Sequence record: SRR20825006_430
Length of the DNA stretch: 34,113 nucleotides
Direction: 5' to 3' (one strand)
The translations under genes and the position numbers were made by a program. Under the pieces are notes generated by a model. The model made no database searches. It saw only the letters and a list, made by a program, of their open reading frames with translations, and had not been told where the DNA came from. Positions 2,111 through 20,408 of this stretch are shown here, piece after piece. Within the stretch, counting starts at the first letter, position 1. The number at the start of each line of letters is the position of its first letter.

Positions 2111-3237
2111 TAGATCACCTCAATTTCAGCTTGCAGGGCGCCGGCAGCTTTGATGGCTTGTAAGATCGAGATCAAATCCCGTGGTGAAATGCCCAGCGCA
2201 TTCAGCCCATCAACGAGTTCTTGCAACGTGACCGTTTCATTCAATGTGGCGAGACTGCTGTCTACTTGATCGACCTGAATTTCTGTGCGCGGCACCACGA
2301 CGGTTTGGCCGTTGGTGAGTGGGTTTGGCTGATCTACTTGCGGGTCTTCGGTGATGGTGACGGTGAGATTTGATTGTGCGATGGCCACTGTTGAAACACG
2401 GACATTGCGCCCCATCACCACGATGCCGGAATTTTCATCAATCACAATTTTGGCAGGTAGGTCCGGGGTGATGACCAATTGTTCAATATCAGTAATCAGA
2501 TCGACAATATTGCCATTAAAGCCGCGGGGCAGGGTGAGGTTTACTGTGGCGTTGTCCAGCGGCACGGCTGTTGGCATGCCAATCAAATTGTTGATGGCGA
2601 GGGCAATACGACGCGCCGTTGTGAAATCTGGATTGCGCAAAGCCAGGCGCACAGCACGGCGAGCGCCGAGATCAAAATCAACTTCACGTTCGATCAGTGC
2701 GCCATCAGAAATCCGTCCGGTTGTGGGAACGCCGGAAATAACAGTTGCGCCATCACCTTCGGCTTGGAAGCCGTTGATCGCGATGGGGCCTTGCGCAATG
2801 GCGTAAACTTCGCCATCAGCGCCCATTAGTGGGGTGACCAGCAATGTGCCGCCCTGAAGGCTTTTTGCATCGCCCAAGGCGGAAACCGAAACGTCTAAGC
2901 GTGAACCTTGGGTGGAGAAGGCTGGTAAGTTAGCGGTGACCATAACGGCGGCAACGTTTGCTGTGCGCATATTGGTGCCGCGGGTGTTGACGCCCATGCG
3001 CTCCAACATGGCAGTTAGGCTTTGGCGGGTGAAGGGCGCATTGTTGAGCCCATCGCCCGTGCCGTTAAGGCCAACAACTAGGCCATAGCCAACCAATTGG
3101 TTTTCGCGCACGCCTTCAATATTGACAATATCTTTAATGCGAGCAGCTTGGGTTGGCGCACAGAGCAAAAGTAGCGCTAGCCCGATTGTTCCCCATTTTG
3201 TCGCGATTGCAAAAATTGCTTTCATCATTTTCCCCAT
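2110..3237 (-). CDS. flgI: Flagellar P-ring protein FlgI (start could be 3228)
   Basis: Signal peptide followed by RIKDIVNIEGVRENQLVGYGLVVGLNGTGD, and C-terminal DLISILQAIKAAGALQAEIEVI. Confidence 0.98.
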   Translation of the reverse strand: MGKMMKAIFAIATKWGTIGLALLLLCAPTQAARIKDIVNIEGVRENQLVGYGLVVGLNGTGDGLNNAPFTRQSLTAMLERMGVNTRGTNMRTANVAAVMVTANLPAFSTQGSRLDVSVSALGDAKSLQGGTLLVTPLMGADGEVYAIAQGPIAINGFQAEGDGATVISGVPTTGRISDGALIEREVDFDLGARRAVRLALRNPDFTTARRIALAINNLIGMPTAVPLDNATVNLTLPRGFNGNIVDLITDIEQLVITPDLPAKIVIDENSGIVVMGRNVRVSTVAIAQSNLTVTITEDPQVDQPNPLTNGQTVVVPRTEIQVDQVDSSLATLNETVTLQELVDGLNALGISPRDLISILQAIKAAGALQAEIEVI

Positions 3238-3284
3238 TTCTGTCCGGCCCCATTCCCCAATCGGGCACGGTCTGCCAACATAAA

Positions 3285-3300
3285 TGCGAAATCTGTGCCA
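3285..3300 (-). promoter_or_regulatory. sigma54 -24/-12 promoter of flgI-flgJ-flgN
   Basis: Minus strand TGGCAC-AGATT-TCGCA (GG-N10-GC). An IHF-like AATCATAAATTTA lies at 3319-3331. Confidence 0.85.
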
Positions 3301-3399
3301 ACTTCGGATGTGTTGGGCTAAATTTATGATTTAATTGAATAAAATTAGATCGGGCGTGTGGGTTCTTTTGTTTTGTGCTGGAAAATGATAGATTTTGTA

Positions 3400-3453
3400 G
3401 GTAAATAGTGCCCATCATCTGATTTGGGTGGTAAAGGTTGGGCAGAAATTGCC
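3400..3453. promoter_or_regulatory. ftr-like (FlbD-type) enhancer palindromes
   Basis: GGTA-AATAG-TGCC (3400-3412) and GGCA-GAAAT-TGCC (3441-3453) lie 100-150 bp upstream of the flgI sigma54 promoter. Another copy, GGCA-CGGTC-TGCC, lies at 3264-3276. Confidence 0.7.
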
Positions 3454-3477
3454 GACTGGATTGTTTTAGGTTTTTAA

Positions 3478-3888
3478 ATGCGCATTACAGACACCAACAG
3501 AACCAGCCGCACTGCGCCGAAAAAGGCCGCCAAAGGGCAGCCTGACGGGCAAAAATTTGCCGTGAGTGATGACAACACCACGCAGCAAGTGCGTCACCAT
3601 GCGTCTGTTGAAGATGTGGGCAGTGTTGATGCGCTGCTGGCATTGCAAAGTGTTGAAGATCCAGTGCTGGCCAAAAAGAAGAGCATTAAGCGGGGGCACC
3701 AGCTTTTAGATGGGTTGGAGCGCCTTAAAACTGACCTGTTGGTGGGGCGTGTGAGTGAAGCGCGGCTCAACAATATGCTCAAGATGCTGAAAAATGCGCC
3801 CAATGTTGATGATCCTGCCTTGCAAGAGGTGATCGACGACATTGAACTGCGTGTTCAAGTAGAACTGGCCAAACTTGATCGGCTCTAG
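3478..3888 (+). CDS. fliX: Flagellar assembly regulator FliX
   Basis: Motifs VDALLALQSVED...RGHQLLDGLERLKTDLL and IDDIELRVQVELAKL. It is divergent from flgI, as in Caulobacter. Confidence 0.92.
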   Translation: MRITDTNRTSRTAPKKAAKGQPDGQKFAVSDDNTTQQVRHHASVEDVGSVDALLALQSVEDPVLAKKKSIKRGHQLLDGLERLKTDLLVGRVSEARLNNMLKMLKNAPNVDDPALQEVIDDIELRVQVELAKLDRL

Positions 3889-4032
3889 TGCCGAAATTCC
3901 TTCAAATTTGTGGATAAGTCCGCGTCATCTTACCGTCATCATAATTGACTAGAGGGCTATGCAATTAGCGGCTTGCCGCCTAGGCCATTGGCGACTATAT
4001 ATGGCCCACATTAGTTGAGGGAGTAAGACTCA

Positions 4033-4488
4033 ATGTCTATGGACTTGGAACGCGAAATTACTGCACCAGATATGGAAGCGCAGGAATTTGACAACTATCG
4101 TCCGAGCGAGGACGAAGAGTTCATGAATCCAAAACAGTTGGCCTATTTTCGCCGCAAGCTGTTGGCGTGGAAAAATGATATTTTGCGCGAGAGCAAGGAA
4201 ACATTGGACGCCTTGCAGGAAGAAAGCCAAAACCATCCTGATATTGCTGACCGTGCATCTTCAGAAAGCGATCGGGCGCTTGAATTGCGGACGCGGGACC
4301 GTCAGCGCAAATTGATCTCTAAAATTGATGCAGCGCTGAAGCGGGTTGATGATGGTTCTTACGGCTATTGCGAAGAGACCGGGGAGCCGATTGGCTTGGC
4401 CCGGCTGGACGCACGGCCAATTGCAACCTTGTCGCTTGAAGCGCAAGAAAAGCATGAACGGCGCGAAAAAGTTTACCGCGACGATTAA
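4033..4488 (+). CDS. dksA: RNA polymerase-binding transcription factor DksA
   Basis: YRPSEDEEFMNPKQLAYFRRKL, the coiled-coil tip DIADRA, and YGYCEETGEPIGLARLDARP. Confidence 0.97.
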   Translation: MSMDLEREITAPDMEAQEFDNYRPSEDEEFMNPKQLAYFRRKLLAWKNDILRESKETLDALQEESQNHPDIADRASSESDRALELRTRDRQRKLISKIDAALKRVDDGSYGYCEETGEPIGLARLDARPIATLSLEAQEKHERREKVYRDD

Positions 4489-4627
4489 GCGTGTCTTTTA
4501 ATCGCTTGATTTGACTTATATATAAAAGATAGGACAAACTGGATAAGTGTCTTATCTGACGTGTTGACGGCAGTTTTGAGTTGGCACAAAGATATTGAGT
4601 TGAGCGTGGTAATTGAGGGTTGGCGCT

Positions 4628-5638
4628 ATGACAGCACATGCTGGGCGAAAGGTGGAGGGGCAGCAGCCGATGGCGGCTGTGACGCAACCTCAAGCCATAT
4701 CGCCAGAAAGCTGGCCCATTTCTCAACCATATGATGTGGTTTTTTATCGCTCACGCGGCCCGAAAAGTCGCGTGAACGTCACGTTTCAGCACGCATTTGA
4801 TTTTGATGCGTTCAAATCTTCCCGGAAATTTACCCATTGTGCGTTGGTTGGTTCAGAGCTGACGGCGGTTGAAGCCTATCCCCGCGCGGTGAAGGGCTAT
4901 TACACCGATATGCTGCACCCTGGTGGCGTGCGCTTTGTGCCGGTGATTGACCTTTGTTACGACAGCAAAAAGCGTTATCGCGATTTTATGGTGCTGCGCT
5001 GCCCAGATTTGCGCTCGCCAGATACATTCTTCGGGGCGGAAAGCATGATGAGTGCTTGGCGCTATATTGAATCTAAATATAGCTTGCGCCGTTTTGTTGG
5101 CTTTGGCCGTGGGCCAAAAGACAATCAAAATGCCAAACAGATCAAAGAGTGGCTTTCCTGCTCTGATCTTGTGTTGAAGATATTGGCCGATTCTGGTCGG
5201 TTCGGCATGAAGTTTCGAGAGCGGACAACACCATCTGGCCTTGTGGCCCAGTTGAAAATGCGGGGCTGGCAGGATGTAACCGCTGATTATGCGCCTGAGC
5301 GATTTGAGATTAAATCGCGGCAATATATGCAGCGTTTTGGCCTGTCTGGCGCTAATCGGGCAGGGGTGGATATTTTCGCTTTAAAGATGGCGTGGAACCT
5401 TGGCACTTTTGGTCAATCGATCCAACGTCAGCAATATATGGTGGAAGAATATATCAATCGTCGCCTTTCGAATTTGTGGCACCATGACCCGGAAGCTAAG
5501 AGCTTTTTGGAGCGGTTTACCGCGGACCATGCCATGGGCGTGCTCAAACAAATTCGTTCAATGCGGGCAGATGATTTTGGCGATCATATTGATCCTTTAT
5601 TGGCTGAGCTGTCGCAAAAGCGGCATTTTTTGAAATAG
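4628..5638 (+). CDS. Permuted papain-like (YiiX/YebB-like, NlpC/P60 superfamily) enzyme with an uncharacterised C-terminal extension
   Basis: The motifs occur in the order of permuted NlpC/P60 proteins, with His before Cys: QPYDVVFYR, FTHCALV (His), VEA, GGVRFVP, VLR, KYS, SCSDLV (Cys), TPSGL. The start is uncertain (4613/4628/4670). Confidence 0.7.
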   Translation: MTAHAGRKVEGQQPMAAVTQPQAISPESWPISQPYDVVFYRSRGPKSRVNVTFQHAFDFDAFKSSRKFTHCALVGSELTAVEAYPRAVKGYYTDMLHPGGVRFVPVIDLCYDSKKRYRDFMVLRCPDLRSPDTFFGAESMMSAWRYIESKYSLRRFVGFGRGPKDNQNAKQIKEWLSCSDLVLKILADSGRFGMKFRERTTPSGLVAQLKMRGWQDVTADYAPERFEIKSRQYMQRFGLSGANRAGVDIFALKMAWNLGTFGQSIQRQQYMVEEYINRRLSNLWHHDPEAKSFLERFTADHAMGVLKQIRSMRADDFGDHIDPLLAELSQKRHFLK

Positions 5639-5667
5639 CCAAAATTCCATTTCTCGAAACGATGTGC

Positions 5668-5693
5668 GGAACTGAATGACGCCTTTTTGCGTT
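5668..5693 (+). promoter_or_regulatory. EcfG/sigmaT/RpoE2-type general stress response promoter
   Basis: GGAAC-N17-CGTT, an exact match to the alphaproteobacterial GSR ECF consensus, about 70 bp upstream of the 95-aa gene. Confidence 0.75.
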
Positions 5694-5764
5694 TATCTGT
5701 TGTGAAATCGCGCTTGCAGCTTGGTGCGGTGCCAAGTTGAAGCGCGCAACGAACAGAGGCTCAT

Positions 5765-6052: not shown

Positions 6053-6082
6053 AATAAGATTGCTTGAACTATCCCTTTGAAC

Positions 6083-6112
6083 ACGGCGTGCACAATGTGC
6101 ACGCCGTTTTTG
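6083..6112 (+). terminator. Intrinsic terminator
   Basis: ACGGCGTGCACA/TGTGCACGCCGT inverted repeat followed by a T-run. Confidence 0.8.
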
Positions 6113-6170
6113 TTATGGCATATTTGCGTTTGTTTGCTTCGCCGTATCCACGGTTTCGTAGTCTGTGTTT

Positions 6171-6671
6171 CTATGATTTTTCAAGATTTACGATATGGCC
6201 GAGCATTTTTTGGGTCAGGGCATTGAGTTGGGAGATTTCTTCAGAGGATAGGCTTGCCAGCAGGCGGGCTTCATTGTCGATATGTTTGGGGACAATCTCA
6301 TCAATCAAGGATTTGCCTTTGGCCGTGAGGGCCACAAGATTTGAGCGCCGGTCATTGGGATTGGGGCGGCGTTCGATTAGCGCTGCTTTTTCTAACTTAT
6401 CGATACGATTGGTCATGCCGCCGGAGGAGACCATCGTGGCCTCATAAAGGGCGGTGGGCGAGAGAGCGTGCGGGGCGCCGGCGCGTCGTAGCGTGGCCAA
6501 AACGTCAAATTCGCCCGGTTGCAATCCAAATTTTGCGAAGAGGGGGTCAATGTGATCACGTTGCGCACGTAGCGCCAATTCGGCAATGCGCCCAAGGGTT
6601 TCCATGGGAATGGTATCAAGTTCTGGGCGTTCTTTTTGCCATTGTTTAGCAGCGTGAGCAGCGCGATCCAT
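6171..6671 (-). CDS. MarR-family regulator, PecS/UrtR-like
   Basis: N-terminal QW..ERPELD..PM..LGRI extension, GEFDVLATLRRAG, SSGGMTNRIDKLE and DRRS wing. It is divergent from a DMT gene. Confidence 0.9.
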   Translation of the reverse strand: MDRAAHAAKQWQKERPELDTIPMETLGRIAELALRAQRDHIDPLFAKFGLQPGEFDVLATLRRAGAPHALSPTALYEATMVSSGGMTNRIDKLEKAALIERRPNPNDRRSNLVALTAKGKSLIDEIVPKHIDNEARLLASLSSEEISQLNALTQKMLGHIVNLEKS

Positions 6672-6682
6672 ATTTATGCCTT

Positions 6683-6715
6683 TATCTTAATGTCAAGATA
6701 CTTTATGGTAAGATA
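6683..6715. promoter_or_regulatory. Tandem 18-bp MarR/PecS operator palindromes
   Basis: TATCTT-AATGTC-AAGATA (6683-6700) and ATACTT-TATGGT-AAGATA (6698-6715) overlap by 3 bp in the 64-bp divergent intergenic region. Confidence 0.8.
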
Positions 6716-6735
6716 AATTTCAATTCAAACGGAAT

Positions 6736-7686
6736 ATGAGTATGGCTAACCTGTCGCAAAATCCAACCGCCAATCTTAACTCGTCCCCAAAGGTGACGTT
6801 TTGGCAGCAGTTTGACCTTGGCATGCTGGTGCTTTTGCTGATTGTTGGCTTTTTTATGGGGCTTACTGCCGTGTTGGGCAAAGTGGCGATCAATACCGGG
6901 TGGACACCATCAATTTATCTTGCCCACACCGCGCTGGGCGGTGGCTTGCTGTTGCTGATTATTACAAGATCTTTGGGGCAACGGGCGCAATTTAACCTGT
7001 CGGATTGGCGTTATAATTTTATCTCTGGCCTGTTTTTTGTGGTGCCAAACCTGATGTTTTTCTTTGCTGTCCGGCATGTGGGCGCAGGCTTTATTGCCTT
7101 TGCCACAGCGTTTGCGCCCGTGCTCACCTTTTTCATTGCTGTTGCAATTGGAGATGATCGCTTTTCGCTCGGCAAGATTTTAGGTGTCGGCATGGCGTTG
7201 ACTGGTGGAATTTTGTTGGCGCTGGGCAAATTGACCGACACGAGCATAGCGCCATTGTGGATTGTGATAAGCCTGTTTGGCCCCGTGTTCTTGGCATTCG
7301 GCAATATTTTCCGTTCGCGCTTTTGGCCAACTGGCGTTGCGCCGTTATTGTTGGCGCCATGGATGCTGATCACGGCCGGACTTTATAGCTATGGGTTTGC
7401 TTTTGTGACGGGTTCATGGTCGGCGGCGGATGTGTCCAGCGCTGGATATTTGGTGATGGGGGCACAGATTTTGTGCTTTGCGGCGGGCTTTGGCTTTTAC
7501 TTTGTGCTGCAAAAACGCGGTGGCCCGGTTTATCTGAGCCAAATTGGTCCGGTGATTGCCCTGGTTGGTGCGCTGTTGGCAGCGACTTTCCTGCAGGAGC
7601 AGCTGACGCTTTTGGTTTTGCTTGGCGGCGCGGCTGTGATCGCTGGGGTGGTGATTTTCAATGCTGCCAATTTTGGCAAGAAATAA
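6736..7686 (+). CDS. DMT/EamA-family transporter (about 10 TM)
   Basis: Two hydrophobic EamA-like halves, with APVLTFFIA...DRFSLGKILG and GGPVYLSQIG...FLQEQL motifs. Confidence 0.9.
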   Translation: MSMANLSQNPTANLNSSPKVTFWQQFDLGMLVLLLIVGFFMGLTAVLGKVAINTGWTPSIYLAHTALGGGLLLLIITRSLGQRAQFNLSDWRYNFISGLFFVVPNLMFFFAVRHVGAGFIAFATAFAPVLTFFIAVAIGDDRFSLGKILGVGMALTGGILLALGKLTDTSIAPLWIVISLFGPVFLAFGNIFRSRFWPTGVAPLLLAPWMLITAGLYSYGFAFVTGSWSAADVSSAGYLVMGAQILCFAAGFGFYFVLQKRGGPVYLSQIGPVIALVGALLAATFLQEQLTLLVLLGGAAVIAGVVIFNAANFGKK

Positions 7687-7696
7687 GCCGCGCCTT

Positions 7697-7794
7697 AAAA
7701 ACAAAAAGGGCGCGACCAAATTGGGGAAAGTCGCGCCCTTTGGGGAAGGGCTGACCGCAAATTGGGGAAAGCGATCAGCCGATTTAATGGTGCC
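7697..7794 (-). ncRNA. Candidate flgH 3'UTR structured RNA/sRNA: two hairpins with identical UUUCCCCAAUUU loops, ending in an intrinsic terminator
   Basis: Minus strand reads GGCUGAUCGC[UUUCCCCAAUUU]GCGGUCAGCC-CUUCCCCAAA-GGGCGCGAC[UUUCCCCAAUUU]GGUCGCGCCC-UUUUUGUUUUU. The G.U wobbles and the U-tract work only on the minus strand. Confidence 0.55.
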
Positions 7795-8529
7795 TTAGAA
7801 GGGGAGAATGGCGTCCATAAATTGCTGGCCATAGCGTGGCTGCTGCACATCGGTGATTTGACCGCGGCCGCCATATGAGATGCGGGCCTGTGCAATTTTT
7901 TCGGAAGGAATGGTGTTGTTGGCTCCGATGTCTTCTGGGCGAACCACGCCAGCGATGATCAAGTCGCGTACTTCGAAATTCACCCGAACTTCCTGACGAC
8001 CTTCGATGACCAAGTTGCCGTTTGGCAAAACCTGCACCACCACTGCGGCCACTGATGTGTCCAAAGTTTCTGAGCGGTTTACGGAGCCGTCGCCTGTGTC
8101 AGCAGAGCCAGAGCTCAACTCGATTGCGCCATTGGCAGAAACGTCTGGCACCACTGAGTTGAAGATGGAGCCAACCACGCCGCCTGCGCCTGCATCATTT
8201 GTGCTGGTGCGTGAGCGAGATGTTTTGTTGGCGATTTGGGCTTTGTCTGCAATGGTAACGTCCACGGTGAGGATGTCGCCCACTTTGCTGGCACGTTGAT
8301 CTTTGAAAAAGCCGCGCTTGCCAGAGATGAACAATGAGTTTGGCTGGTAGGCCACTTTCTCAGGTTCTGGCATAGGCATAGACACTGGCTTGTAGCCTGC
8401 TTTCGCCTGCGGGTTTTCAATGGCGGTCAATGATGGTGCCTTGCCGATATTTGCAATTCGATTGGCCGTTGTACAGGCGGTGAGTGATGCGCCTAGTGCG
8501 ATCAAAGTGATGATTTGAAGCAGTTTCAT
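7795..8529 (-). CDS. flgH: Flagellar L-ring lipoprotein FlgH
   Basis: Lipobox LTAC, FFKDQRASKVGDILTV, VLPNGNLVIEGRQEVRVN and ARISYGGRGQITDVQQPRYGQQ. Confidence 0.98.
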   Translation of the reverse strand: MKLLQIITLIALGASLTACTTANRIANIGKAPSLTAIENPQAKAGYKPVSMPMPEPEKVAYQPNSLFISGKRGFFKDQRASKVGDILTVDVTIADKAQIANKTSRSRTSTNDAGAGGVVGSIFNSVVPDVSANGAIELSSGSADTGDGSVNRSETLDTSVAAVVVQVLPNGNLVIEGRQEVRVNFEVRDLIIAGVVRPEDIGANNTIPSEKIAQARISYGGRGQITDVQQPRYGQQFMDAILPF

Positions 8530-8540
8530 TTTGGTTGCTC

Positions 8541-9497
8541 CTAGTTAACTGTCGCGACTTTGGCGGGACCATTTGAAATGGTCACAGCGCCGGCGCCAGT
8601 GACGATGCCCTGAATTGGTTTGTTGGACATCAGATTGAGAACGGTGACAGGCTCGTTAAGGGCTGCTGATTGCATGGCCTTTGCCTTCACAGTGAGGGTG
8701 AGTGCGCCTTTTTGGAAATAAAGGGTCACAAGTTCGTTGCGACTAATCAGATCTGGCTCGGTCACATCAGCGACACGAAGTGGGCTGCCGCCACGCAGGG
8801 CGCGGGTTAGGCTTTTGCCCACCAGTTCTTCAATGTGCAGAACGCCTTGTGAGCGCACCAATTGTTCAGAAGCTGGGCGCATTTCAATATCGCTCAACTG
8901 CAGGATTTCGCCTTTGCCCTTGGTTTGGGTCAAGAATGGTGCTTCGACCATAATGTCGATCCGGCCATTCAATTGCAGCGGCTGGCTGTGACCAGCCAAG
9001 GCCAAGCGGGCGGCGAATGTGCGGGTGTTTGGACCAACTTCAAAGTCCAGCACCATCACAGGATTGTCTGATGCACTGTCTGCAAAGATGGTGTTGAGCG
9101 CAGCATTCAACCGCAATTGAGCTGTTTCACCCTCCAGCAGCAATTCACGCGCCATCAATTCTTCATTGACGAGCTGGTTGATGTAGCCCGCGTCAACTTT
9201 AACGCCTGCGCGTTCAACCCGAACTTGGGAAAGACCTGCAGTGTCGTAATTGGCAAAGCCTGCCCGCTGCGCGGCCAAGTGAATGGAGGTGAGGGGCACA
9301 GCGCCAACCGTGCCAGGCGCTGGGCTACGGAACAAAGGCGTTTCAGCATGCACGCCAGCATTGTTGAACATGTCGCCCACGGTGACCACTTTTGTATCCA
9401 CCAACACCGAAGGCTTAAGCACTGGCATGGCCAAAGCGCTTTGCGCCATAAGTGCGGCGGTGAGGGCCAGAACAGATTTGCTAAGAGATTTGAACAT
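8541..9497 (-). CDS. flgA: P-ring formation chaperone FlgA
   Basis: Signal peptide, SAF-like region and C-terminal LTLTVKAKAMQSAALNEPVTVLNLMSNK, located between flgG and flgH. Confidence 0.9.
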   Translation of the reverse strand: MFKSLSKSVLALTAALMAQSALAMPVLKPSVLVDTKVVTVGDMFNNAGVHAETPLFRSPAPGTVGAVPLTSIHLAAQRAGFANYDTAGLSQVRVERAGVKVDAGYINQLVNEELMARELLLEGETAQLRLNAALNTIFADSASDNPVMVLDFEVGPNTRTFAARLALAGHSQPLQLNGRIDIMVEAPFLTQTKGKGEILQLSDIEMRPASEQLVRSQGVLHIEELVGKSLTRALRGGSPLRVADVTEPDLISRNELVTLYFQKGALTLTVKAKAMQSAALNEPVTVLNLMSNKPIQGIVTGAGAVTISNGPAKVATVN

Positions 9498-9512
9498 GAT
9501 CTCAACCTACCC

Positions 9513-10298
9513 CTAGCGGATCTGCGATGTGGCTTGCAGCATTTGGTCGGCACCCGAAATTACACGCGCATTCATTTCATATGCGCGCTGGGCGGCGATC
9601 AAATCAGCAATTTCAGTCACAGCGTTTACGTTGGCCAGTTCCAAGTGCTTTTGCAGCATGTTGCCAAAGCCATCTTGGTTGGCGACGCCGTTTTGCGCAG
9701 GGCCAGAGGCGGCGGTTTCAACATAGGTGTTGTCCCCGATGCTTTCCAAACCCGCTTTGTTGGCAAAGCGGCTCAATTGGATTTGACCCAAGGTAGTTGG
9801 AGCTGACTCATTGTCCAAAAAGGCTTGGACCGTGCCGTCAGCTGAGATTGAAACGGCGCGGGAGTTGGCCGGAATGTTGATGCCTGGCTGAACCAAATAA
9901 CCTTCGATGGTGACCATCTGGCCGTTTGAGTCCCGTTCGAAGGAACCATCACGCGTGTAACCTGTACGGCCATCTGGTAGGGTTACCGAGAAGAAGCCTT
10001 CACCACGAATGGCGATGTCCAACTCTTTTTCAGTTGGCTGAATGTTACCTTGGCTCATGATCCGCGGTGTGGCGCCGGTTTTAACACCAGAACCGATTTC
10101 AACGCCTGTTGGCAATTGAGTGCCAGCGGCAGAGGTTTGCGAACCTGCGCGGCGATAAACCTGATATAGCAAATCCTGGAAGTCAGCCCGCTGGCGCTTA
10201 TAGCCAGTGGTGCGCATGTTGGCGATGTTGTTGGAGATCACTTCAACGTTCCGCTCTTGCGCTGACATGCCTGTGGAAGCGATATAGAGTGCCTTCAT
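9513..10298 (-). CDS. flgG: Distal rod protein FlgG
   Basis: MKALYIASTGMSAQERNVEVISNNIANMRTTGYKRQRADFQDLLYQ, YTRDGSF and LIAAQRAYEMN. Confidence 0.98.
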   Translation of the reverse strand: MKALYIASTGMSAQERNVEVISNNIANMRTTGYKRQRADFQDLLYQVYRRAGSQTSAAGTQLPTGVEIGSGVKTGATPRIMSQGNIQPTEKELDIAIRGEGFFSVTLPDGRTGYTRDGSFERDSNGQMVTIEGYLVQPGINIPANSRAVSISADGTVQAFLDNESAPTTLGQIQLSRFANKAGLESIGDNTYVETAASGPAQNGVANQDGFGNMLQKHLELANVNAVTEIADLIAAQRAYEMNARVISGADQMLQATSQIR

Positions 10299-10321
10299 TA
10301 TTCTGTTCCTTTCGCTTTCAC

Positions 10322-11059
10322 TTAAGCTCTTGTGTCGCCAAGTTTTTGAATGGCGGAGCGCCGCAATTCATCTTGACGCTGTTGGAGACTGGCAATGGAT
10401 TCATATGCCTTGGTTACGCGGATCATTTCAGTCATTTCAGAAACGCCAGAAACGTTAGACCGCTCAATGGCCATATGGACCAACCGGGATGGGTTGTCGA
10501 AAATTGGATTTTCGCCAGAAAACATGGTGTCGCCTTCGCGGCGCAGGCTTTGTGGATCATCAAATTCTGCGACCCGCAAAATGCCTTTGTCGCCAGCGGA
10601 AGAGGTTACCCGGCCATCTTCGGTGATGGCGATGCCTGTTTCTTCCGGGCCGAAGGTTACGAAGCCACCATCGGCCAGCACATTGTAGCCTTCTGAGGTG
10701 ACCAGCTGACCAAGCTCATTAAGCTGGAATGAACCATTGCGGGTGTAGCGCTCGCCGCCAGGCGTATCGATAACAAAGAACCCGTCGCCTTGAATGGCCA
10801 CGTCCAATGGGTTGCCTGTTTGCGTGATGCTGCCGGAGGCAAAATCGTGAATGGTGGCCCAATCCTGCGTGTAAGAAAGCGGCTGGTCCATCATCTCAAA
10901 ATCTTTATGACGGGCGACCGGCATGACATATTCTTCGAAAAGAATGTCCATATTTTTGTAACCGGCTGTATTCATATTGGCCATATTGTTGGCCACAACG
11001 TCCATTTGACGTTGCAGGGCAATTTGCCTTGATAAGCCGATGAGCTGTGCGTTTTCCAT
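10322..11059 (-). CDS. flgF: Proximal rod protein FlgF
   Basis: MENAQLIGLSRQIALQRQMDVVANNMANMNTAGYK, TGNPLDVAIQGDGFF and ERSNVSGVSEM. Confidence 0.97.
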   Translation of the reverse strand: MENAQLIGLSRQIALQRQMDVVANNMANMNTAGYKNMDILFEEYVMPVARHKDFEMMDQPLSYTQDWATIHDFASGSITQTGNPLDVAIQGDGFFVIDTPGGERYTRNGSFQLNELGQLVTSEGYNVLADGGFVTFGPEETGIAITEDGRVTSSAGDKGILRVAEFDDPQSLRREGDTMFSGENPIFDNPSRLVHMAIERSNVSGVSEMTEMIRVTKAYESIASLQQRQDELRRSAIQKLGDTRA

Positions 11060-11128
11060 GGCACCTGTCTCCCCAATTTAACATTTGGCCGTTTAACTTC
11101 CCCAAGCTAGCGGGCCTGCCAAATACAA

Positions 11129-11163
11129 TGCGAAGATCGTGCCAGTTTTCTAACTTATTGATT
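11129..11163 (-). promoter_or_regulatory. sigma54 promoter of flgFGAH with an IHF site
   Basis: TGGCAC-GATCT-TCGCA (11129-11144). AATCAA-TAAG-TTA (11151-11163) is a perfect WATCAANNNNTTR. Confidence 0.85.
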
Positions 11164-11218
11164 TATATGGATTTTGATTAAAATTTTCATCAAATGGGCA
11201 AGTGAGTGTTTGCTGGGT

Positions 11219-11245
11219 GGCAAAAATTACCGGGCAAAAATTGCC
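11219..11245. promoter_or_regulatory. Tandem ftr-like (FlbD) enhancer sites
   Basis: GGCA-AAAAT-TACC (11219-11231) and GGCA-AAAAT-TGCC (11233-11245), 75-100 bp upstream of the flgF sigma54 promoter. Confidence 0.75.
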
Positions 11246-11259
11246 GCAAAATGCAAAAA

Positions 11260-11275
11260 GTAACTCTTCGTTAAC
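11260..11275 (+). promoter_or_regulatory. CtrA box of the fliL operon
   Basis: GTAA-CTCTTCG-TTAAC, with a GANTC at 11326-11330 downstream. Confidence 0.75.
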
Positions 11276-11350
11276 CTTCTCGCCCTTACCTCTGTATATA
11301 TAGGCAATGTGGGCGCATCGCCTATGATTCTTGGATAATTGAGGTTTGGC

Positions 11351-11842
11351 ATGGCCAACGAAGACGCAAATGTCGACCCCGAAGCCGGGGAAGAAGGCGA
11401 AGGCAAAAAGAAACTGCCCTTAATGGTAATTATTGGCGCTGCTGTTGTTTTGTTGGCGGCGGCAGGTGGTGCAGCCTATTTCTTTTTATTTGCAGGTGGC
11501 GATAGCGAGAAGCCCGAACTTCAAGATGTACGTGAAGCGGTGTTTTACGATTTGCCCACAATCACTGTGAATTTGAGTGATGATGCTGACAATGATGAAG
11601 TGTTTTTGAAGCTCGCCATTGCGCTTGAGCTTTCTGATGAGGCGCTGATTGAAATTGTGGAACCGCGTATGCCGCGGGTGTTGGACACATTTCAGGTTTA
11701 TTTGCGCGAATTGCGCCGCTCAGACCTTGAAGGGTCTGAAGGGATTTATCGATTGAAGGAAGAGTTGCGCCGTCGGGTGAATTTGGCGGTGTTCCCCGCG
11801 CAAGTGGACAGCATTTTGTTTAAAGAAATTCTGGTTCAATAA
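11351..11842 (+). CDS. fliL: Flagellar basal body-associated protein FliL
   Basis: KKK followed by a single TM segment, then FYDLPTITVNL, FLKLAIALEL, PRVLDTFQVYLREL and ILFKEILVQ. Confidence 0.95.
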   Translation: MANEDANVDPEAGEEGEGKKKLPLMVIIGAAVVLLAAAGGAAYFFLFAGGDSEKPELQDVREAVFYDLPTITVNLSDDADNDEVFLKLAIALELSDEALIEIVEPRMPRVLDTFQVYLRELRRSDLEGSEGIYRLKEELRRRVNLAVFPAQVDSILFKEILVQ

Positions 11843-11851
11843 GGTTACGTC

Positions 11852-12982: not shown

Positions 12983-12983
12983 A

Positions 12984-14224: not shown

Positions 14225-14313
14225 CCCGCTTTCCGGCGTGTGGTAAGTAAAGTGTTAATCGCTAGACGCTAGATTGATCTGAACGATTGATCGTAAAGAG
14301 GCCCATCCCGCAA

Positions 14314-17300
14314 ATGGTGTTGTTTAAAGCCATGCAAAAAGCGTTGTGCCAAGCGTTGGTTGCGTCCACGCTTGCAGGCGGGATTGCTGCATCCATTTTA
14401 CCGCCAGCGGCGATGGCGCAAAATCAGCAAGAATCCCAGCGTTTAGAAGTGGTTGCGCAAGGCCAGCCAGGCTACGGCCGGATTATCTTGAAATTTGTCG
14501 ATCGGCTTAATTTACCCTCCTACTCCATTTCTACCAATGGCGGGGTGATGAGCATTGAGTTTTCTCAACCGATCAATGTGCAATTGCCGGACGTGACCGA
14601 GCAGTTGGGCGACTATGTTGCTGTGGCACGGGTGGACCCGGACTTTAAAGGCATTCGCTTCGGCTTAAAGCAGGATTACCGCATCAACCGTATCGAAGCG
14701 GGTGAGCGGCTGTTTATCGACTTTATTCCGCGTGATTGGCAGGGGTTGGACCCCTCATTACCTGAAGATGTGGTGGCGGAACTGGCCCTGCGGGCAGAGC
14801 AAGCGGCAAAGCTGGCAGAGCAGCGCCGCAAGGAGCGGATTGCGCGGGAAACCAAGCCAAGCGCCATTTTGCGTGTTGGTCGGCACCCGACATTTACACG
14901 CGTGAAATTTGAATGGACCATCGACACTGAGGGCAGTTGGGAACGCACTGCTGAAGGCGGGGTGTTGAAATTCGAATGGCCTGTGGATGTTGATCTTTAT
15001 CCCATTCAATCGGAATTGCCGGAAGAAATTGAAAGCGTTGAAAAAGAGATCACGCGCGACGGGCTACAGGTGAGCTTTAAGCTAACCGACAAGGTTGAGC
15101 CGCGCTTTTTCAAAGAAAATAACCGCAACTATACGTTGGATTTGGACTTTTCGACCCGTGAAGATGTGGGCGTGCCCATTACCGACATTGCGCCGGAACA
15201 AGTTGCAGAAGAGATTGCAGACAATGAGCGTGTGACGACGACGCAGGACGAGATTGACCCGCTATTGCGGAAAACGCCAACCTTGTCGCGCCAAACTCGC
15301 ATTACGCCATTTGTGAACAAAATTGGCGGCACTGTTCGGCTGATTTTCCCATTTGAGCAAGATACGCCTGCCGCTGTGTTTAAGCGCGGTGACACGGTTT
15401 GGATGGTGTTCGACACCCACGTGGCGATCGACCCACCTGCGGACACGGATTTGCTTGGTGGCATCACGCAAGACATCAAAGTCGATACGGCCGGGGAAAC
15501 CCAAATTGTTCAAATGACCATGAATGCGGATCGGTTGGCGACTTTGGGGTCAGAAGGGCGTTCATGGGTTTTGTCGCTGGGCGATATATTGATTGCGCCC
15601 ACCGAGCCAATGTCGCTTACCCAGCAACGCCAAAGTGATGGGCGCACCGTGTTGGTGGCTGACTTGCTGCGACCTGGGCGGGTGCACCAATTGCGCGATC
15701 CAAATGTTGGTGATTTGTTGCAAGTTGTGACGGCTTATCCACCTTCACGGGCGATTGTTCGCGACTTGGAATATGTAGATTTCAAAGCGCTGCGTGCGGT
15801 GCATGGTTTGGTGATCAAGCCTTATCACTCTGAAGTGATTTTGCAGATTGAAGGCTCGGAAGTGGTGATCGATGCGGAGGAAAAACTGATGTTGTCTTCC
15901 GCCACAGATGTGAACCGCGAAGTGCTTGTGGATGCTGGTGACCGCATTGGCTATATCGACCTGAGCGCGCTCGAGACTGTTCGTCCAGATAATTTCATTG
16001 AAAAGCGTGAAGAAATTCAGGTGCGGGCTGCGGAAGCAGAGGGCAATGCGAAAGAGAGTGCGCGGGTTGAGTTGGCCAGATATTATCTGGCCAATCGTTT
16101 GACCCATGAAGCCTTGGGCGTGCTGCGGGTTTGGGAAAAAGACACCAAACGTCCGCAGTTGTTGGAAGAAGGCAAGATGGTGCAGGCCGCCGCAAATGTG
16201 CTGGCAGGGCGCCATGATGATGCGCTGGAAATTTTGCTGGAAGACGAGTTTGTCGACGAGCCAGATGCGGTGATGTGGCGGACCATTGCACGGGCCAACC
16301 GCGGCGAATATGATATTGCCCGCAACGATGCGTTGCTGGCTGAGCAGGCGGTTGAAGCCTATCCGACTTGGATTGCCAATGAGTTTTACTTTGCGGCAGC
16401 ACGGTCTGCCGTTGAAATGGGTGATTCCGCAGCGGCAATCCGCTATTTGGGCGGTATTGATTTCAGTTCGCTCGATAAAGAAAATCTAAGCCGCTATGAC
16501 TTGCTGGCTGGGCGTGTGGACGAGGTGGACCAACGCTATGCTGACGCGCTGGAGACTTATGGTTCAGTGCTGAATATGGATATTCGGCCCACCTATGCCG
16601 AGGCGGTTTATCGCACATTGTTGGTGCTGGAAAAGCAAGGCAATATTGATTTGGACAAAGCGGTGCAGACGCTGTCCATTCAATCGCTGACATGGCGTGG
16701 TGGCGAGCTTGGCGCGAATATTCAAGAGCTTTATGGCCGCTTGCAATTCAAAAACCATGATTATCGTGGCGGGTTTGAAACGCTTGAGCGGATGCAGGTG
16801 GTGCATCAGGATACGCCACAAGAGACGCGGCATTTTGAGCTGTCTAAGCAGATTTTTGAAGATCTGTTTTTGAATGGCGAAGCTGATCGGCTTGAGCCTG
16901 TGCGGGCGCTTGGCCTTTATTATGACTTCCGTAAATTGACGCCTGCGGGCGCCAAAGGCGATGAAATGATCCGTAATTTGGCGCGGCGTTTGGTGCGGGT
17001 TGATCTTTTGGATCAGGCGGCGGAGTTGCTGGATTATCAGATTGATAATCGCTTGGAAGGCGTAGCGCGCGCGAAGATTGCGGCGGACCTTGCGGTGATC
17101 CATATTGCCAATCGGCGCGCGGACTTGGCGCTAAAAGCGCTTTATAAAACCCGTTTGGCCAATTTGGTGCCGCAGTTGGAGCGGCAGCGTCGGATTTTGG
17201 AAGCTAAGGCTTTGATCGATGCGGGCCGCGATGAGCTGGCGGTTGATATTTTGCGCAATATTGAAGGGTTTGACGCCCGGTTGCTAGAGGTTGATGCCCA

Positions 17301-17670
17301 TTGGGCAGGTCGCCGCTATCGCGAAGCGGGTGAGTTGATTGAGCGTATTTATGCTGACCAGTACACGGATGCGGGGTCATTGCCGACAAGTGTGCGCAAT
17401 GATTTGGTGAAGGCAGCTGTGGCCTATACGCTGGGCAATGATGAGATTGGACTGACACGGTTGCGGGCAAAGTTCTCCGGTCGCATGTCGTCCACGCCAG
17501 AGTGGCCAGTGTTTGAATTCGTGACCAGCAAAACCGCGTTTGGCACGAAGGAGTTTAAAGCATTGGCAAAAGAGATTGCAGATGTGGATTCGCTCAACTC
17601 ATTCCTTGCGGCGTATAAAGAGCGCTATGGCACGGAAGGCGCGTTGGCGCCGGATCAGGATGTGCTTTAA
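14314..17670 (+). CDS. Large periplasmic TPR protein with repeated N-terminal beta-domains (MotK/PflA-like motor accessory protein, inferred)
   Basis: Signal peptide ending AMA-Q, three similar beta-rich units, and a helical TPR-like C-terminal half (ARVELARYYLAN..., IRNLARRLVRVDLLDQAAELL). It follows motE. The start is uncertain (14287/14314/14332). Confidence 0.8.
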   Translation: MVLFKAMQKALCQALVASTLAGGIAASILPPAAMAQNQQESQRLEVVAQGQPGYGRIILKFVDRLNLPSYSISTNGGVMSIEFSQPINVQLPDVTEQLGDYVAVARVDPDFKGIRFGLKQDYRINRIEAGERLFIDFIPRDWQGLDPSLPEDVVAELALRAEQAAKLAEQRRKERIARETKPSAILRVGRHPTFTRVKFEWTIDTEGSWERTAEGGVLKFEWPVDVDLYPIQSELPEEIESVEKEITRDGLQVSFKLTDKVEPRFFKENNRNYTLDLDFSTREDVGVPITDIAPEQVAEEIADNERVTTTQDEIDPLLRKTPTLSRQTRITPFVNKIGGTVRLIFPFEQDTPAAVFKRGDTVWMVFDTHVAIDPPADTDLLGGITQDIKVDTAGETQIVQMTMNADRLATLGSEGRSWVLSLGDILIAPTEPMSLTQQRQSDGRTVLVADLLRPGRVHQLRDPNVGDLLQVVTAYPPSRAIVRDLEYVDFKALRAVHGLVIKPYHSEVILQIEGSEVVIDAEEKLMLSSATDVNREVLVDAGDRIGYIDLSALETVRPDNFIEKREEIQVRAAEAEGNAKESARVELARYYLANRLTHEALGVLRVWEKDTKRPQLLEEGKMVQAAANVLAGRHDDALEILLEDEFVDEPDAVMWRTIARANRGEYDIARNDALLAEQAVEAYPTWIANEFYFAAARSAVEMGDSAAAIRYLGGIDFSSLDKENLSRYDLLAGRVDEVDQRYADALETYGSVLNMDIRPTYAEAVYRTLLVLEKQGNIDLDKAVQTLSIQSLTWRGGELGANIQELYGRLQFKNHDYRGGFETLERMQVVHQDTPQETRHFELSKQIFEDLFLNGEADRLEPVRALGLYYDFRKLTPAGAKGDEMIRNLARRLVRVDLLDQAAELLDYQIDNRLEGVARAKIAADLAVIHIANRRADLALKALYKTRLANLVPQLERQRRILEAKALIDAGRDELAVDILRNIEGFDARLLEVDAHWAGRRYREAGELIERIYADQYTDAGSLPTSVRNDLVKAAVAYTLGNDEIGLTRLRAKFSGRMSSTPEWPVFEFVTSKTAFGTKEFKALAKEIADVDSLNSFLAAYKERYGTEGALAPDQDVL

Positions 17671-18509
17671 CCGAGATAACTTCGGATCAGTGAGCCTGCG
17701 ACCAGATTCCAGCCATCGACGAGCACGAAGAAAATCAGCTTAAACGGCAATGAGATCACGATAGGCGGCAGCATCATCATACCCATGGACATGAGCACCG
17801 AGGCGACCACCATGTCGATGACGATGAAGGGCACAAACAGCAAAAAGCCAATTTCAAATGCCCGACGCAATTCAGAAATCATGAAGGCTGGCACCAAAAT
17901 AGTGATGTCCAGTTCCTCGGGATTTTCTGGGATCGGCGTTTCCGTTAGGTCCAGAAACAGCTGTACATCTTTATCCCGCACATGCGCGCGCATAAATTCG
18001 TGCAATGGCGCCATGGCCTCTGGCAGCGCTTCTTCCAGCAACAAATCGCCAGCAACCAAAGGCGCGATGCCCTGATCGTAAGATTGTTGCAGGGTGGGGG
18101 CCATCACAAAGGCCGTGAGGAACAAGGCCAGCGAAATCATCACGGAGTTCGGCGGTGCCGTTTGCAGGCCGATGGCGGTACGCAGCAAAGACAAGACAAC
18201 GACAATGCGGGTGAATGAGGTGACCATCACCAGAATAGACGGGGCCAAGGACAGGATCGTGATGATCCCGATCAGTTGTACCGCGCGTTCAGTGAGCGTT
18301 GTTTGGTCTTCAAAGTCGATTGAAATGTCTTGGGCAAAGCTGGGGAACACAAACAAGGCCCCCAGCATCAAAATAACAAAGCAGAAGCTGAACGATTTTG
18401 CGCTAAACCAAGCGAAGGATTTAAGACGTTCAGCCGTAAATAATTGCGCTGGCGGTGTGCCAGCCAGCGCAGGGCGCAATTTAGTCTTGCTTGGCTTTGT
18501 CTTTTCCAT
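17667..18509 (-). CDS. fliP: Flagellar export gate protein FliP (start uncertain)
   Basis: LSLAPSILVMVTSFTRIVVVLSLLRTAIG, PAFMISELRRAFEIGF and LPFKLIFFVLVDGW. Confidence 0.97.
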   Translation of the reverse strand: MEKTKPSKTKLRPALAGTPPAQLFTAERLKSFAWFSAKSFSFCFVILMLGALFVFPSFAQDISIDFEDQTTLTERAVQLIGIITILSLAPSILVMVTSFTRIVVVLSLLRTAIGLQTAPPNSVMISLALFLTAFVMAPTLQQSYDQGIAPLVAGDLLLEEALPEAMAPLHEFMRAHVRDKDVQLFLDLTETPIPENPEELDITILVPAFMISELRRAFEIGFLLFVPFIVIDMVVASVLMSMGMMMLPPIVISLPFKLIFFVLVDGWNLVAGSLIRSYLG

Positions 18510-19257
18510 GTTCAGACGCTGAATCGGCTCCTTCATGCTCGCTTTTCGGAGCATCTTCATTCGCCAATTTAACTGAGTCGGCATTTGCGTCTTGGTTTTT
18601 GTTGTCTGAAACCAGGCTATCCACGTCTTTTTGCTTGTTGCCGCTCCGCAAAAGGCCGGGATATTTCAGCGTGTTTGTGCCTGCACTCGGGTTTGATTTG
18701 GCCAGCTCTTGCAGCTTTTCAATCGGGGCGAGGTTTGGCATTGGCGTCACGTTGCCGCCTTTGTTTTCGCTTGGCGGGTTAACCTGCGGTTCCATCCGAT
18801 CTTCCAGCGGGGAAACGGGTGTGGTGCGCGACGGGCCGCTGGGGCGCGGTTTAGCAACGATAGGGGCAGCTGGTTTTAGGCTCTCTTTTGGCTCCAATTG
18901 CGCCTTCATGGATTCACTTTCAGGCATTTCGGTTTTGGCTGCAGCTGGGCGTTGATCAACTTCATTAGGATTTTGAAAACCGCTTTCAATCACCACATCA
19001 TTTGGGCCGCCTATCATCACCAGATGTTCAACATCGTCGCGGCGCACGATCACCAATTGGCGCTTATTGTCTACCGGCGCAGATTGCAGCACGGCCAGGC
19101 GGCGCAATTTGCTGCGGCTGCCATCGCGGCTGGCGCGGAAGCCAATTTTGATCAGCCACACCACCAAAATGATGGCCAGAATTGTGATGAAAAGACCGCC
19201 AATAACAATGGCAATATTGCCCAAATCTTCACCCAAAAGTTCAGTTAAAAAACCCAT
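18481..19257 (-). CDS. fliO: FliO with a long low-complexity C-terminal tail
   Basis: TM segment followed by the FliO motif RLAVLQSAPVDNKRQLVIVRRDDVEHLVMIGGPNDVVIE. Confidence 0.9.
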   Translation of the reverse strand: MGFLTELLGEDLGNIAIVIGGLFITILAIILVVWLIKIGFRASRDGSRSKLRRLAVLQSAPVDNKRQLVIVRRDDVEHLVMIGGPNDVVIESGFQNPNEVDQRPAAAKTEMPESESMKAQLEPKESLKPAAPIVAKPRPSGPSRTTPVSPLEDRMEPQVNPPSENKGGNVTPMPNLAPIEKLQELAKSNPSAGTNTLKYPGLLRSGNKQKDVDSLVSDNKNQDANADSVKLANEDAPKSEHEGADSASEHGKDKAKQD

Positions 19258-19351
19258 TATAGCCTCTATGTTCGTCTTTATTGCTGTGTGGCATATGCGA
19301 CCTATCTGGTCAAAATGTGGTGATCGAATTTAAACACTCAAAAAATGATAT

Positions 19352-19479
19352 GGCAAAAACTGCCTAGTGCAAGCCTACATTCGGCGAATGACACATTTTG
19401 GCACGCTGATTGATGGCATTTATTGAAAATTGCAAAGATTATTAACGCAACGTTAACCATTTGCCCGGCAATATCTGCC
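19352..19479. promoter_or_regulatory. fliO/flgB divergent control region: a perfect CtrA box flanked by two ftr-like sites
   Basis: TTAA-CGCAACG-TTAAC (19442-19457), GGCA-AAAAC-TGCC (19352-19364) and GGCA-ATATC-TGCC (19467-19479). Confidence 0.8.
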
Positions 19480-19500
19480 TAGCACTAAGATGAGGTTAGT

Positions 19501-19905
19501 ATGTCGATTGCAAAGTTGCCTTTATTTGATGCGTTGACGCAGAAAATGAAGTGGCACCAAACGCGGCAAACATTGTTAGCAGAGAACATCGCCAACGCTG
19601 ATACACCAGATTATCGCGGGCGTGACCTGAAAAAGTTCGATTTTGCACAGCATCAGGCTGATTTGAAGATGACCAGCGTGTCGACGCGGGTGACGAATGT
19701 GAATCACTTTTCAGTGGTGGGGCAAGGCGCAGACGGATTCGGCGCGCGGCAAATGAACAATTTTGAAATTACGCCAGAAGGCAATGGTGTGGTGCTGGAA
19801 GATGAAATGATGAAAGTCTCCAGCAACCAGATGGACTATCAAGCGGCGACCGCCGTCTACAAACGCTCTTTGCGGTTGATCAGAACCGCATTGGGCAAGC
19901 AGTAA
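19501..19905 (+). CDS. flgB: Rod protein FlgB
   Basis: RQTLLAENIANADTPDYRGRDL and PEGNGVVLEDEMMK. Confidence 0.97.
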   Translation: MSIAKLPLFDALTQKMKWHQTRQTLLAENIANADTPDYRGRDLKKFDFAQHQADLKMTSVSTRVTNVNHFSVVGQGADGFGARQMNNFEITPEGNGVVLEDEMMKVSSNQMDYQAATAVYKRSLRLIRTALGKQ

Positions 19906-19921
19906 TTTGACGAGGTGAGTG

Positions 19922-20338
19922 ATGTCTTCTGATTTTATGAATTCGCTGAAAATTGCCGCAACTGGGCTGCACGCGCAGTCTGCGCGGATGCGGATTATCG
20001 CTGAAAACATGGCCAACTCCAGCTCAGCAGCGAAAGAGCCGGGGGCAGACCCATATCGGCGCAAAGTGCCAACATTTGAGGCGGTTTATAATAATGAATT
20101 GATGGCCAATGAAGTGAAGATTGGCCGCGTGGCTTATGACCAAAGTGATTTTCAATCACGCTATGAGCCTGGGCACCCGGCAGCGGATGATCGTGGCTAT
20201 GTGCTGTATCCAAATGTGAATAGCCTGGTGGAAACCATGGATATGCGGGAAGCCCAGCGCACATATGAAGCGAACTTGAATGTGGTGACCGTGACCCGGC
20301 AAATGCTGGGCGGCACATTGGACATTCTTCGCGGATAG
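19922..20338 (+). CDS. flgC: Rod protein FlgC
   Basis: IAATGLHAQSARMRIIAENMAN, YEPGHPAAD..GYV.YPNVN and AQRTYEANL. Confidence 0.97.
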   Translation: MSSDFMNSLKIAATGLHAQSARMRIIAENMANSSSAAKEPGADPYRRKVPTFEAVYNNELMANEVKIGRVAYDQSDFQSRYEPGHPAADDRGYVLYPNVNSLVETMDMREAQRTYEANLNVVTVTRQMLGGTLDILRG

Positions 20339-20408
20339 GGGAAGGGCTGAGCGGCGCAAAATTGGGGAATGGCGCGCCGCGATAGCCAACTAAAATTGGG
20401 GAATTTTT

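Follow-up and report, generated by a model that had tools for sequence, protein, structure and literature searches.

In a 34,113-nucleotide (nt) stretch of DNA from sequence record SRR20825006_430 (hereafter the window), attributed to a marine Maritalea, which corresponds to an alphaproteobacterial flagellar gene cluster according to a Pfam scan of 35 open reading frames (ORFs), the 5' leaders of the flgF, flgI and fliE genes each contain paired G-rich boxes, and flgH has in its 3' untranslated region (3'UTR) C-rich tracts that are complementary to them. We found that these boxes are real and specific and that they are not the usual Shine-Dalgarno (SD) variant of the genome. They are best read as a conserved two-site leader module made of G-rich recognition sites, in which the downstream GGGG(A) box would serve as, or overlap, the ribosome-binding site. 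As for the function of the complementary tracts, we give an even chance to the proposal that the anti-SD-like loops of the flgH 3'UTR pair with the flgF, flgI and fliE leaders.

The three leaders share one layout, with one GGGG in a hairpin loop upstream and one at the SD site. In the flgF leader (minus strand), box 1 (TTGGGGAAG, 11097..11105) forms the GGGG tetraloop of a predicted hairpin, (G)CUU-GGGG-AAG(U), while box 2 (AAATTGGGGA, 11070..11079) lies in the SD region (GGGGAGA), ends 10 nt before the ATG at 11059 and aligns with the SD of the Rfam family RF01736 (flg-Rhizobiales). When 27 Devosiaceae flgF leaders were aligned, the base pair beside the closing U-A pair of this hairpin was found to covary (UA in 22 leaders, CG in 4 and AU in 1), and 90.3% of the cells of the alignment were paired, compared to 75.6% in shuffles.

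In the flgI leader, which is also on the minus strand, box 1 (ATTGGGGAA, 3253..3261) is located in the loop of a predicted hairpin, AUU-GGGG-AAU, that is nested in a larger stem, as is also the case for the upstream box of fliE. The stems that carry the flgI GGGG loop covary in relatives (GCGCU/AGCGU, GUUCAU/AUGAAC, GAUCCGU/ACGGAUC and CCCAU/AUGGG), and GGGG loops are found family-wide in flgI leaders on stems of very unlike sequence. Box 2 (AAATGGGGAAA, 3229..3239) includes an ATG at 3237, which is the start of the longest ORF, and is followed by a second ATG at 3225-3223. In other Maritalea genomes, the place of ATG 3237 is taken by a CTG or a TTG, and an ATG is conserved 6 nt past the GGGG. 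Because relatives keep the downstream ATG and not ATG 3237, this box appears to be an SD rather than coding sequence, and flgI probably starts at ATG 3225-3223, the longest-ORF start probably being wrong. The first-pass annotation of this DNA had described the box as lying across the start region of flgI: its position was right, but it is better seen as the SD of ATG 3225-3223. All the other coordinates that had been given for boxes in the fliE, flgF and flgI leaders were also correct when the sequence was re-read. Separately, a third G-box (AAAATGGGGAAC) is present inside flgI at 3190-3200 on the minus strand, ~25-35 nt past the likely start.

The fliE leader (plus strand) lies in the 70-nt spacer that separates flgC from fliE. 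It contains the same 11-mer twice: box 1 (AAATTGGGGAA, 20359..20369) is in the loop of a predicted hairpin, GCGGCGC...GCGCGCCGC (fold z -2.83), and box 2 (again AAATTGGGGAA, 20393..20403) is at the SD position, ending 5 nt before the ATG at 20409. Directly 3' of the flgC stop codon, another segment of the leader (GGGGAAGGGCTGA, 20338..20350), itself a further G-box, is perfectly complementary over 13 nt to the flgH 3'UTR, namely to hairpin A in its 3' arm and to the adjoining linker. This fliE leader, with covarying stems, was found only in one genus (g1; 9/9 genomes) and in genome G014; more distant members of the family have a short flgC-fliE spacer and an ordinary GGAG SD. An ORF of 195 amino acids starting with TTG (19995-20582, minus strand) overlaps the fliE leader and the fliE start and masked both fliE boxes in an ORF-based intergenic count; this ORF is probably spurious.

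TTGGGGA is clearly enriched in the window, where it occurs 11 times compared to 4.99±2.06 times in 100 shuffles, none of which (0/100) reached 11. Eight of these copies are found in the 3070 nt of intergenic DNA (9.0% of the window), where ~0.45 would be expected (Poisson P ~3e-8), bearing out the excess first proposed on the basis of rough expectations of ~4 copies per window and well below 1 in its intergenic part. The number of eight intergenic copies that had been reported by eye also holds, but three of them (7721, 7740 and 7762, plus strand) correspond to the flgH 3' element itself read from the opposite strand, and therefore five TTGGGGA target boxes remain. To these can be added the ATGGGGA variant at the flgI SD and AGGGGAAGGGCTGA at 20338-20350.

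Specificity was then evaluated on G001, the genome nearest to the window (3.5 Mb, 98% complete, 56% of 31-mers in common with the window), which carries the same flagellar cluster in reverse orientation. A background sample of 720 kb, made of 36 evenly spaced 20-kb stretches in which genes were crudely called (n=647), contained 12 intergenic TTGGGGA per 69.3 kb, so that the five target boxes of the window are in significant excess (P ~2e-4). In the same sample, TTGGGGA was found at the SD of only 2/647 genes. Among 680 5' regions scored in G001 (each from -100 to +3), those with at least two GGGGA were only four, belonging to flgI, flgF, fliE and an SBP_bac_5 transporter gene. The motif thus does not behave as a common SD variant; had it done so, the proposal would have been refuted by the terms of the first-pass annotation. 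A search of the whole G001 genome for a two-box pattern (GGGGA-N10-40-GGGGA-N1-12-ATG) gave 8 matches, compared to 2 for the reversed pattern used as a control: the three flagellar leaders, the flgH 3' end in antisense, the leader of a PhyH gene and three sites inside ORFs. The flgF, flgI and fliE leaders all matched this pattern in 5/5 Maritalea genomes searched. As for the exact 11-mer AAATTGGGGAA, G001 contains five copies of it, two in the fliE leader, two in the flgH 3' element and one in antisense within an ORF of 405 amino acids.

Two non-flagellar leaders with two boxes were thus noticed in G001, upstream of the SBP_bac_5 transporter gene (L285:1592-1692) and of the PhyH dioxygenase gene (L313:1503-1535); these may be extra targets or chance matches. 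Lone intergenic GGGGA motifs are also present in the window on the minus strand, at 22926-22930 between flhB and a histidine kinase gene, and at 703-707, ~100 nt upstream of a flagellin start.

The complementary element occupies the 98 nt that follow the flgH stop codon (7697..7794, minus strand) and is predicted to fold into two GC-rich hairpins joined by a linker (-46.4 kcal/mol, z -4.71). Both hairpins have loops of 12-13 nt of the form UUUCCCCAAUUU(G): the loop of hairpin A is UUUCCCCAAUUU, the linker is CUUCCCCAAA, and the loop of hairpin B is UUUCCCCAAUUUG, followed by a UUUUUGUUUUU tail. On the plus strand, the C-boxes read as TTGGGGA at 7721-7727, 7740-7746 and 7762-7768. An alignment of 10 Maritalea flgH 3'UTRs showed that 8 of the 21 stem pairs have compensatory changes, with 98.6% of cells paired, while the loops, like the C tracts in them and in the linker, are invariant in 10/10 sequences. 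Diverged versions, in which UCCCC loops are accompanied by a U-run, are located after flgH in the other Devosiaceae genomes, as well as in Bosea, Methylobacterium, Roseibium, Pleomorphomonas, Bradyrhizobium and others; none was seen at the Parvibaculaceae and Rhodobiaceae flgH loci that were compared. No Rfam family matched 7697-7794 at E values up to 5. We read hairpin B with its UUUUUGUUUUU tail as a putative terminator; a consensus terminator scan flagged neither hairpin, its loop limit being 8 nt when the loops are here of 12-13 nt. Since the gaps between genes from flgF to flgH are only of 11-23 nt, these genes probably form a single transcript. The flgH 3' element would be transcribed as RNA.

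The three C tracts and the five to six leader boxes are complementary over 9-11 nt, as had been claimed from the first look at the sequence; the flgF SD box (AAAUUGGGGAGA), for example, is complementary to all three UCCCC tracts. When the flgF leader and the 160 nt located 3' of flgH were compared at 77 Hyphomicrobiales loci, a strong strand asymmetry was observed, with 136 GGGG and 9 CCCC in flgF leaders, compared to 229 CCCC and 39 GGGG downstream of flgH. G-boxes and UCCCC co-occur: 62 loci have both, 8 have neither, 7 have only the G-boxes and none has only UCCCC (Fisher P 3e-7, a value that is not corrected for kinship and is hence overstated). The flanking bases match as well, with a U before 176/229 C tracts and an A after 127/136 G tracts. 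They also match by clade, Devosiaceae having GGGGAAG with CUUCCCC and most other families having GGGGAGC with GCUCCCC; these clade-matched differences represent few evolutionary events. In Maritalea, the match lengthens to 9-11 nt; the mean longest match of Maritalea leaders was 10.2 with Maritalea 3'UTRs and 7.1 with Devosia 3'UTRs. As a separate observation, one locus from a Devosia metagenome-assembled genome (MAG; locus L189) has a flgH 3' region without UCCCC (loop CACCC) and a decayed upstream flgF box (CUUGGGGAAG to CUUGGAAG), which looks like a joint loss of the C loop and of the G box, in one case only.

The strongest single item for pairing is, in our comparison of sequences, a concerted change of the fliE leader and of the 3'UTR stem arm. 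The segment at -71 of fliE differs between Maritalea subgroups (GGGGAAGGGCTGA or GGAGAGCCAATCG), each version being in step with its own 3'UTR: in subgroup B, the fliE leader has GGAGAGCCAAT(CG) and the 3'UTR of the same genomes has (CG)ATTGGCTCTCC, so that the match is still of 10-13 nt. Predicted cofolding with the flgH 3'UTR points in the same direction, with gains of -18.2 kcal/mol for fliE, -16.3 for flgF and -12.7 for flgI, compared to -4.0 to -7.4 kcal/mol for four control leaders of the cluster. A possible contact between GGCACC after the flgH stop codon and GGUGCC at the flgF start, which was seen in the cofold, was not kept in genome G003 and was taken as chance.

If pairing does take place, it could proceed as follows. 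Three UCCCC tracts, which resemble an anti-SD, would be exposed by the hairpins and the linker of the flgH 3'UTR. After transcription of the whole operon, its 3' end would pair with the leaders, whether it remains part of the message or has been processed into a fragment, starting loop to loop and then extending to the SD box. The targets would be its own flgF leader, in cis or in trans, and the flgI and fliE leaders, in trans, and this would tune the translation or the stability of rod and ring proteins. We lean towards repression by SD occlusion, in other words a negative feedback, as the candidate direction of this effect.

Several observations weigh against this proposal. An anti-SD-like C tract will be complementary to any SD that is rich in G, and the core match is only of 5-7 nt outside Maritalea. 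In the Devosia group, cognate leader-3'UTR pairs were no more complementary than non-cognate pairs, the observed complementarity being reached in 4371/5000 permutations for flgF and in 1363/5000 for flgI. Seven of the 77 loci had G-boxes but no UCCCC in the scanned 160 nt. When the 680 5' regions of G001 were ranked for interaction with the 3'UTR loops and linker only, the three leaders came high in the ranking without being unique, whether the cost of target opening was added to the hybrid energy (fliE 2nd, flgI 18th and flgF 34th) or the hybrid energy was used alone (fliE 5th, flgI 2nd and flgF 10th). Concerning the upstream flgF box, its CUU/AAG flanks are accounted for by its own hairpin stem, and a tight GGGG tetraloop offers 4 free bases only. 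The flgE gene (G001 L250:10080-10300) has a promoter-like site (TGGCAC-N6-TGCA), an ordinary AAGGAG SD and no G-box; being of the sigma-54 type and boxless, it indicates that the boxes mark a subset of sigma-54-driven flagellar genes. Finally, the RNA libraries that cover 6500-11400 (n=3) gave contigs of up to 14 kb at ~97% identity that show neither transcript ends nor strand. The post-transcriptional layer for rod and ring genes that was first proposed for this DNA therefore stands in part: the comparative data (strand asymmetry, co-occurrence at 77 loci, invariant loops and the fliE change) fit pairing, but the Devosia cognate test was negative and the ranking was not unique.

Another explanation is that the leaders are self-contained cis-regulatory RNAs of the flg-Rhizobiales type, whose GGGG loop and SD box would be read by an RNA-binding protein or another factor in a CsrA-like manner, the C-rich loops of flgH then being unrelated or a separate protein site. 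We consider it less likely than pairing, but a serious rival. A site in a hairpin loop together with a site at the SD is the classic layout for a dimeric RNA-binding protein, and the upstream box is indeed a conserved GGGG tetraloop on a covarying stem. A similar two-site layout on a flagellar mRNA is known from the control of flagellin by CsrA and FliW in Bacillus, in which one GGA is presented by a hairpin loop and a second one occupies the SD; the targets are however here rod and ring genes and not flagellin, and a search of G001 (98% complete) gave no CsrA match (PF02599; 0 of 21 scored candidates) and no FliW candidate (PF02623). The genes for FlbT and FlaF adjoin the cluster, beside the flagellin genes, and flagellin leaders are known FlbT targets in Caulobacter, but the flagellin leaders carry here another motif, CC-AGGAA-GG. 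The missing cognate advantage in Devosia is also what such an explanation would expect, and RF01736 is filed as a Cis-reg family (PMC2864571). What a protein or other factor leaves unpredicted is the presence of invariant complementary loops in the flgH 3'UTR, the match between the U before C tracts and the A after G tracts, the 62/8/7/0 distribution and the complement of a 3'UTR stem arm in the fliE leader with its concerted change.

Alternatively, the boxes could simply be ribosome-binding or standby sites that happen, in three genes, to be unusually rich in G, with C-rich loops that are incidental to a terminator and without any specific regulation, which we regard as improbable. One box of every pair is indeed at the SD position, the anti-SD at the 16S rRNA 3' end has a CCUC with which GGGG can form pairs, one of them a wobble, and other genes with GGGGAGG-type SDs score equally against the C loops. 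Nevertheless, the scarcity of TTGGGGA at the SD of sampled background genes speaks against it, and the upstream hairpin box would have no role, yet it is conserved with covarying stems across the family (flgF and flgI) or the genus (fliE). It also does not explain why the 3'UTR loops are invariant while their stems change, and the 11-nt identity among the three leaders exceeds what an SD needs. Finally, the idea that the fliE-leader and flgH-3' sequences are inverted repeats acting at the DNA level, for example as sites to invert the 12.6-kb segment between their inverted matches of 13 nt and 11 nt, is very improbable and was rejected on constant synteny, since fliE, flgF, flgH and flgI keep one order and orientation in all six Maritalea genomes compared (G001, G003, G004, G005, G006 and G009). 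The scan of 35 window ORFs also found no recombinase family, and neither the boxes of flgF and flgI nor the conservation throughout the order would be explained.

Pairing between the flgH 3'UTR and the leaders can also be compared with known systems. No Rfam family matched the window at gathering level. Judging from its alignment, the flgF leader is a distant, sub-threshold relative or variant of flg-Rhizobiales (RF01736), with a score of 22.2 bits (gathering score 55, E 1.4) over a full-length alignment at 11014..11117 (minus strand), when the same model gives 107.2 bits on Bradyrhizobium flgF leaders. The only other matches at E values up to 5, SMAD5-AS1_3 and RsmY, both fall inside coding sequence and were taken as chance. 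The flg-Rhizobiales motif was listed as a candidate cis-regulator of Rhizobiales by Weinberg et al. in 2010, and the supplement of that study shows P1 and P2 loops (CUUGGGAGAGC), an SD GGGGAGA and a start codon (PMC2864571). The window leader is similarly located directly 5' of flgF in a member of the Hyphomicrobiales (the gene being FlgF by Pfam), has the SD GGGGAGA and the ATG inside the model, and has a P1 hairpin whose loop is rich in G (the seed having CUUGGGAGAGC), here in the variant form (G)CUU-GGGG-AAG(U). Unlike the published motif, it has one hairpin instead of P1 plus P2, with GGGG (CUUGGGGAAG) as its loop, 4 nt stand in place of the 39 model positions that separate P1 from the SD, and the pairs of P3, a hairpin that the model places over the start of the coding region, are non-canonical and not kept. 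Similar modules moreover stand here before flgI and fliE, and we propose a complementary partner. Among the titles and abstracts searched, no function for flg-Rhizobiales and no link to the flgH 3' end were found.

The closest parallel for the proposed pairing is icaR of Staphylococcus aureus, whose 3'UTR contains a UCCCCUG motif able to pair with the SD of its own message, which prevents initiation and creates a substrate for RNase III (PMC3868564). In icaR, a UCCCC-type motif of the 3'UTR and the SD region are thus complementary within one transcript, as would be the case here if flgF to flgH form a single transcript. Whereas icaR has a single motif for a single target in a monocistronic message, the pairing proposed here would involve a 3.4-kb operon of four genes, whose hairpins near the terminator hold three C tracts, with two boxes in each leader and two more target operons. 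In Caulobacter, the CCCC loop of CcnA pairs with GGGG in 5'UTRs (PMC8959179) and the C-rich loop of GsrN pairs with a G-rich leader (PMC5869019), these G-rich tracts being close to the start codon. These alphaproteobacterial examples, which belong with RsaE to the trans-acting RNAs with C-rich loops, resemble the predicted exposed C-rich loops described here, with G-rich targets at the SD of three genes, but CcnA and GsrN are free-standing small RNA (sRNA) genes with mostly activating effects, while our C loops belong to the 3'UTR of a structural flagellar operon, and no sequence relation was seen between them and the flgH 3' element. In Agrobacterium, the tested targets of the QfsR sRNA are the 5' regions of flgF, flgI, fliE, fliL and flgH (bioRxiv 10.1101/533729), so that a base-pairing RNA with flgF, flgI and fliE in its target set has a precedent. 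In that account, QfsR is however plasmid-encoded, uses a GAGG-containing site (the opposite polarity), raised reporter output and acts within one long polycistron.

Other features of the window complete this picture. The nearest named FlgH loci are in Maritalea MAGs (82-84% identity), followed by Devosiaceae. Pfam assigned flgI, fliX, dksA, a MarR gene, an EamA gene and flgH-flgA-flgG-flgF on the minus strand, and fliL-fliM, fliP and flgB-flgC-fliE-fliQ-fliR-flhB followed by a histidine kinase gene, recA and alaS elsewhere in the window. Upstream of both flgF and flgI, we noted the sequence TGGCAC-N5-TCGCA, which we take to match the sigma-54 consensus: one copy (11129..11144, minus strand) would be the promoter of the flgF-flgG-flgA-flgH operon and is kept upstream of flgF in relatives, and the other (3285..3300, minus strand) would be that of flgI and is also kept in relatives. 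The flagellin leaders (604-650, minus strand; L249/L250 in G001) contain a different hairpin, NNCC-AGGAA/AGAA-GGNN, for example GGGCCAGGAAGGCCC, with a second motif (CCAGAAUGG) near the SD. This motif was found upstream of genes 1 to 3 of the five flagellin genes and, in a looser form, upstream of genes 4 and 5, and may be the FlbT/FlaF target. A word from these leaders (CCAGAAGG or CCAGAAUAG) recurs in the flgH 3'UTRs of many Devosia.

Extended to the whole order, the proposal becomes a broader one, for which our confidence falls somewhat short of even: the flagellar mRNAs of Hyphomicrobiales may use a communication between 5' and 3' ends, in which the UCCCC loops of flgFGAH would be the missing partner of the flg-Rhizobiales leader motif, closing the mRNA on its own ribosome-binding site and acting in trans on flgI, while the Maritalea fliE gene would have been recruited when part of the 3'UTR was copied in inverted form, the copy and the 3'UTR having since changed together. 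The finding of a conserved complementary element at the other end of the operon offers a concrete hypothesis for the orphan flg-Rhizobiales motif, which has been a candidate cis-regulator since 2010. If true, it would extend the icaR type of 5'-3' UTR pairing beyond a single Gram-positive gene, to an operon of several genes and to a whole alphaproteobacterial order, it would add a post-transcriptional layer to the flagellar hierarchy that involves CtrA, FlbD, FliX and sigma-54, and it would provide a case where a target was gained through the reverse copying of its regulator.

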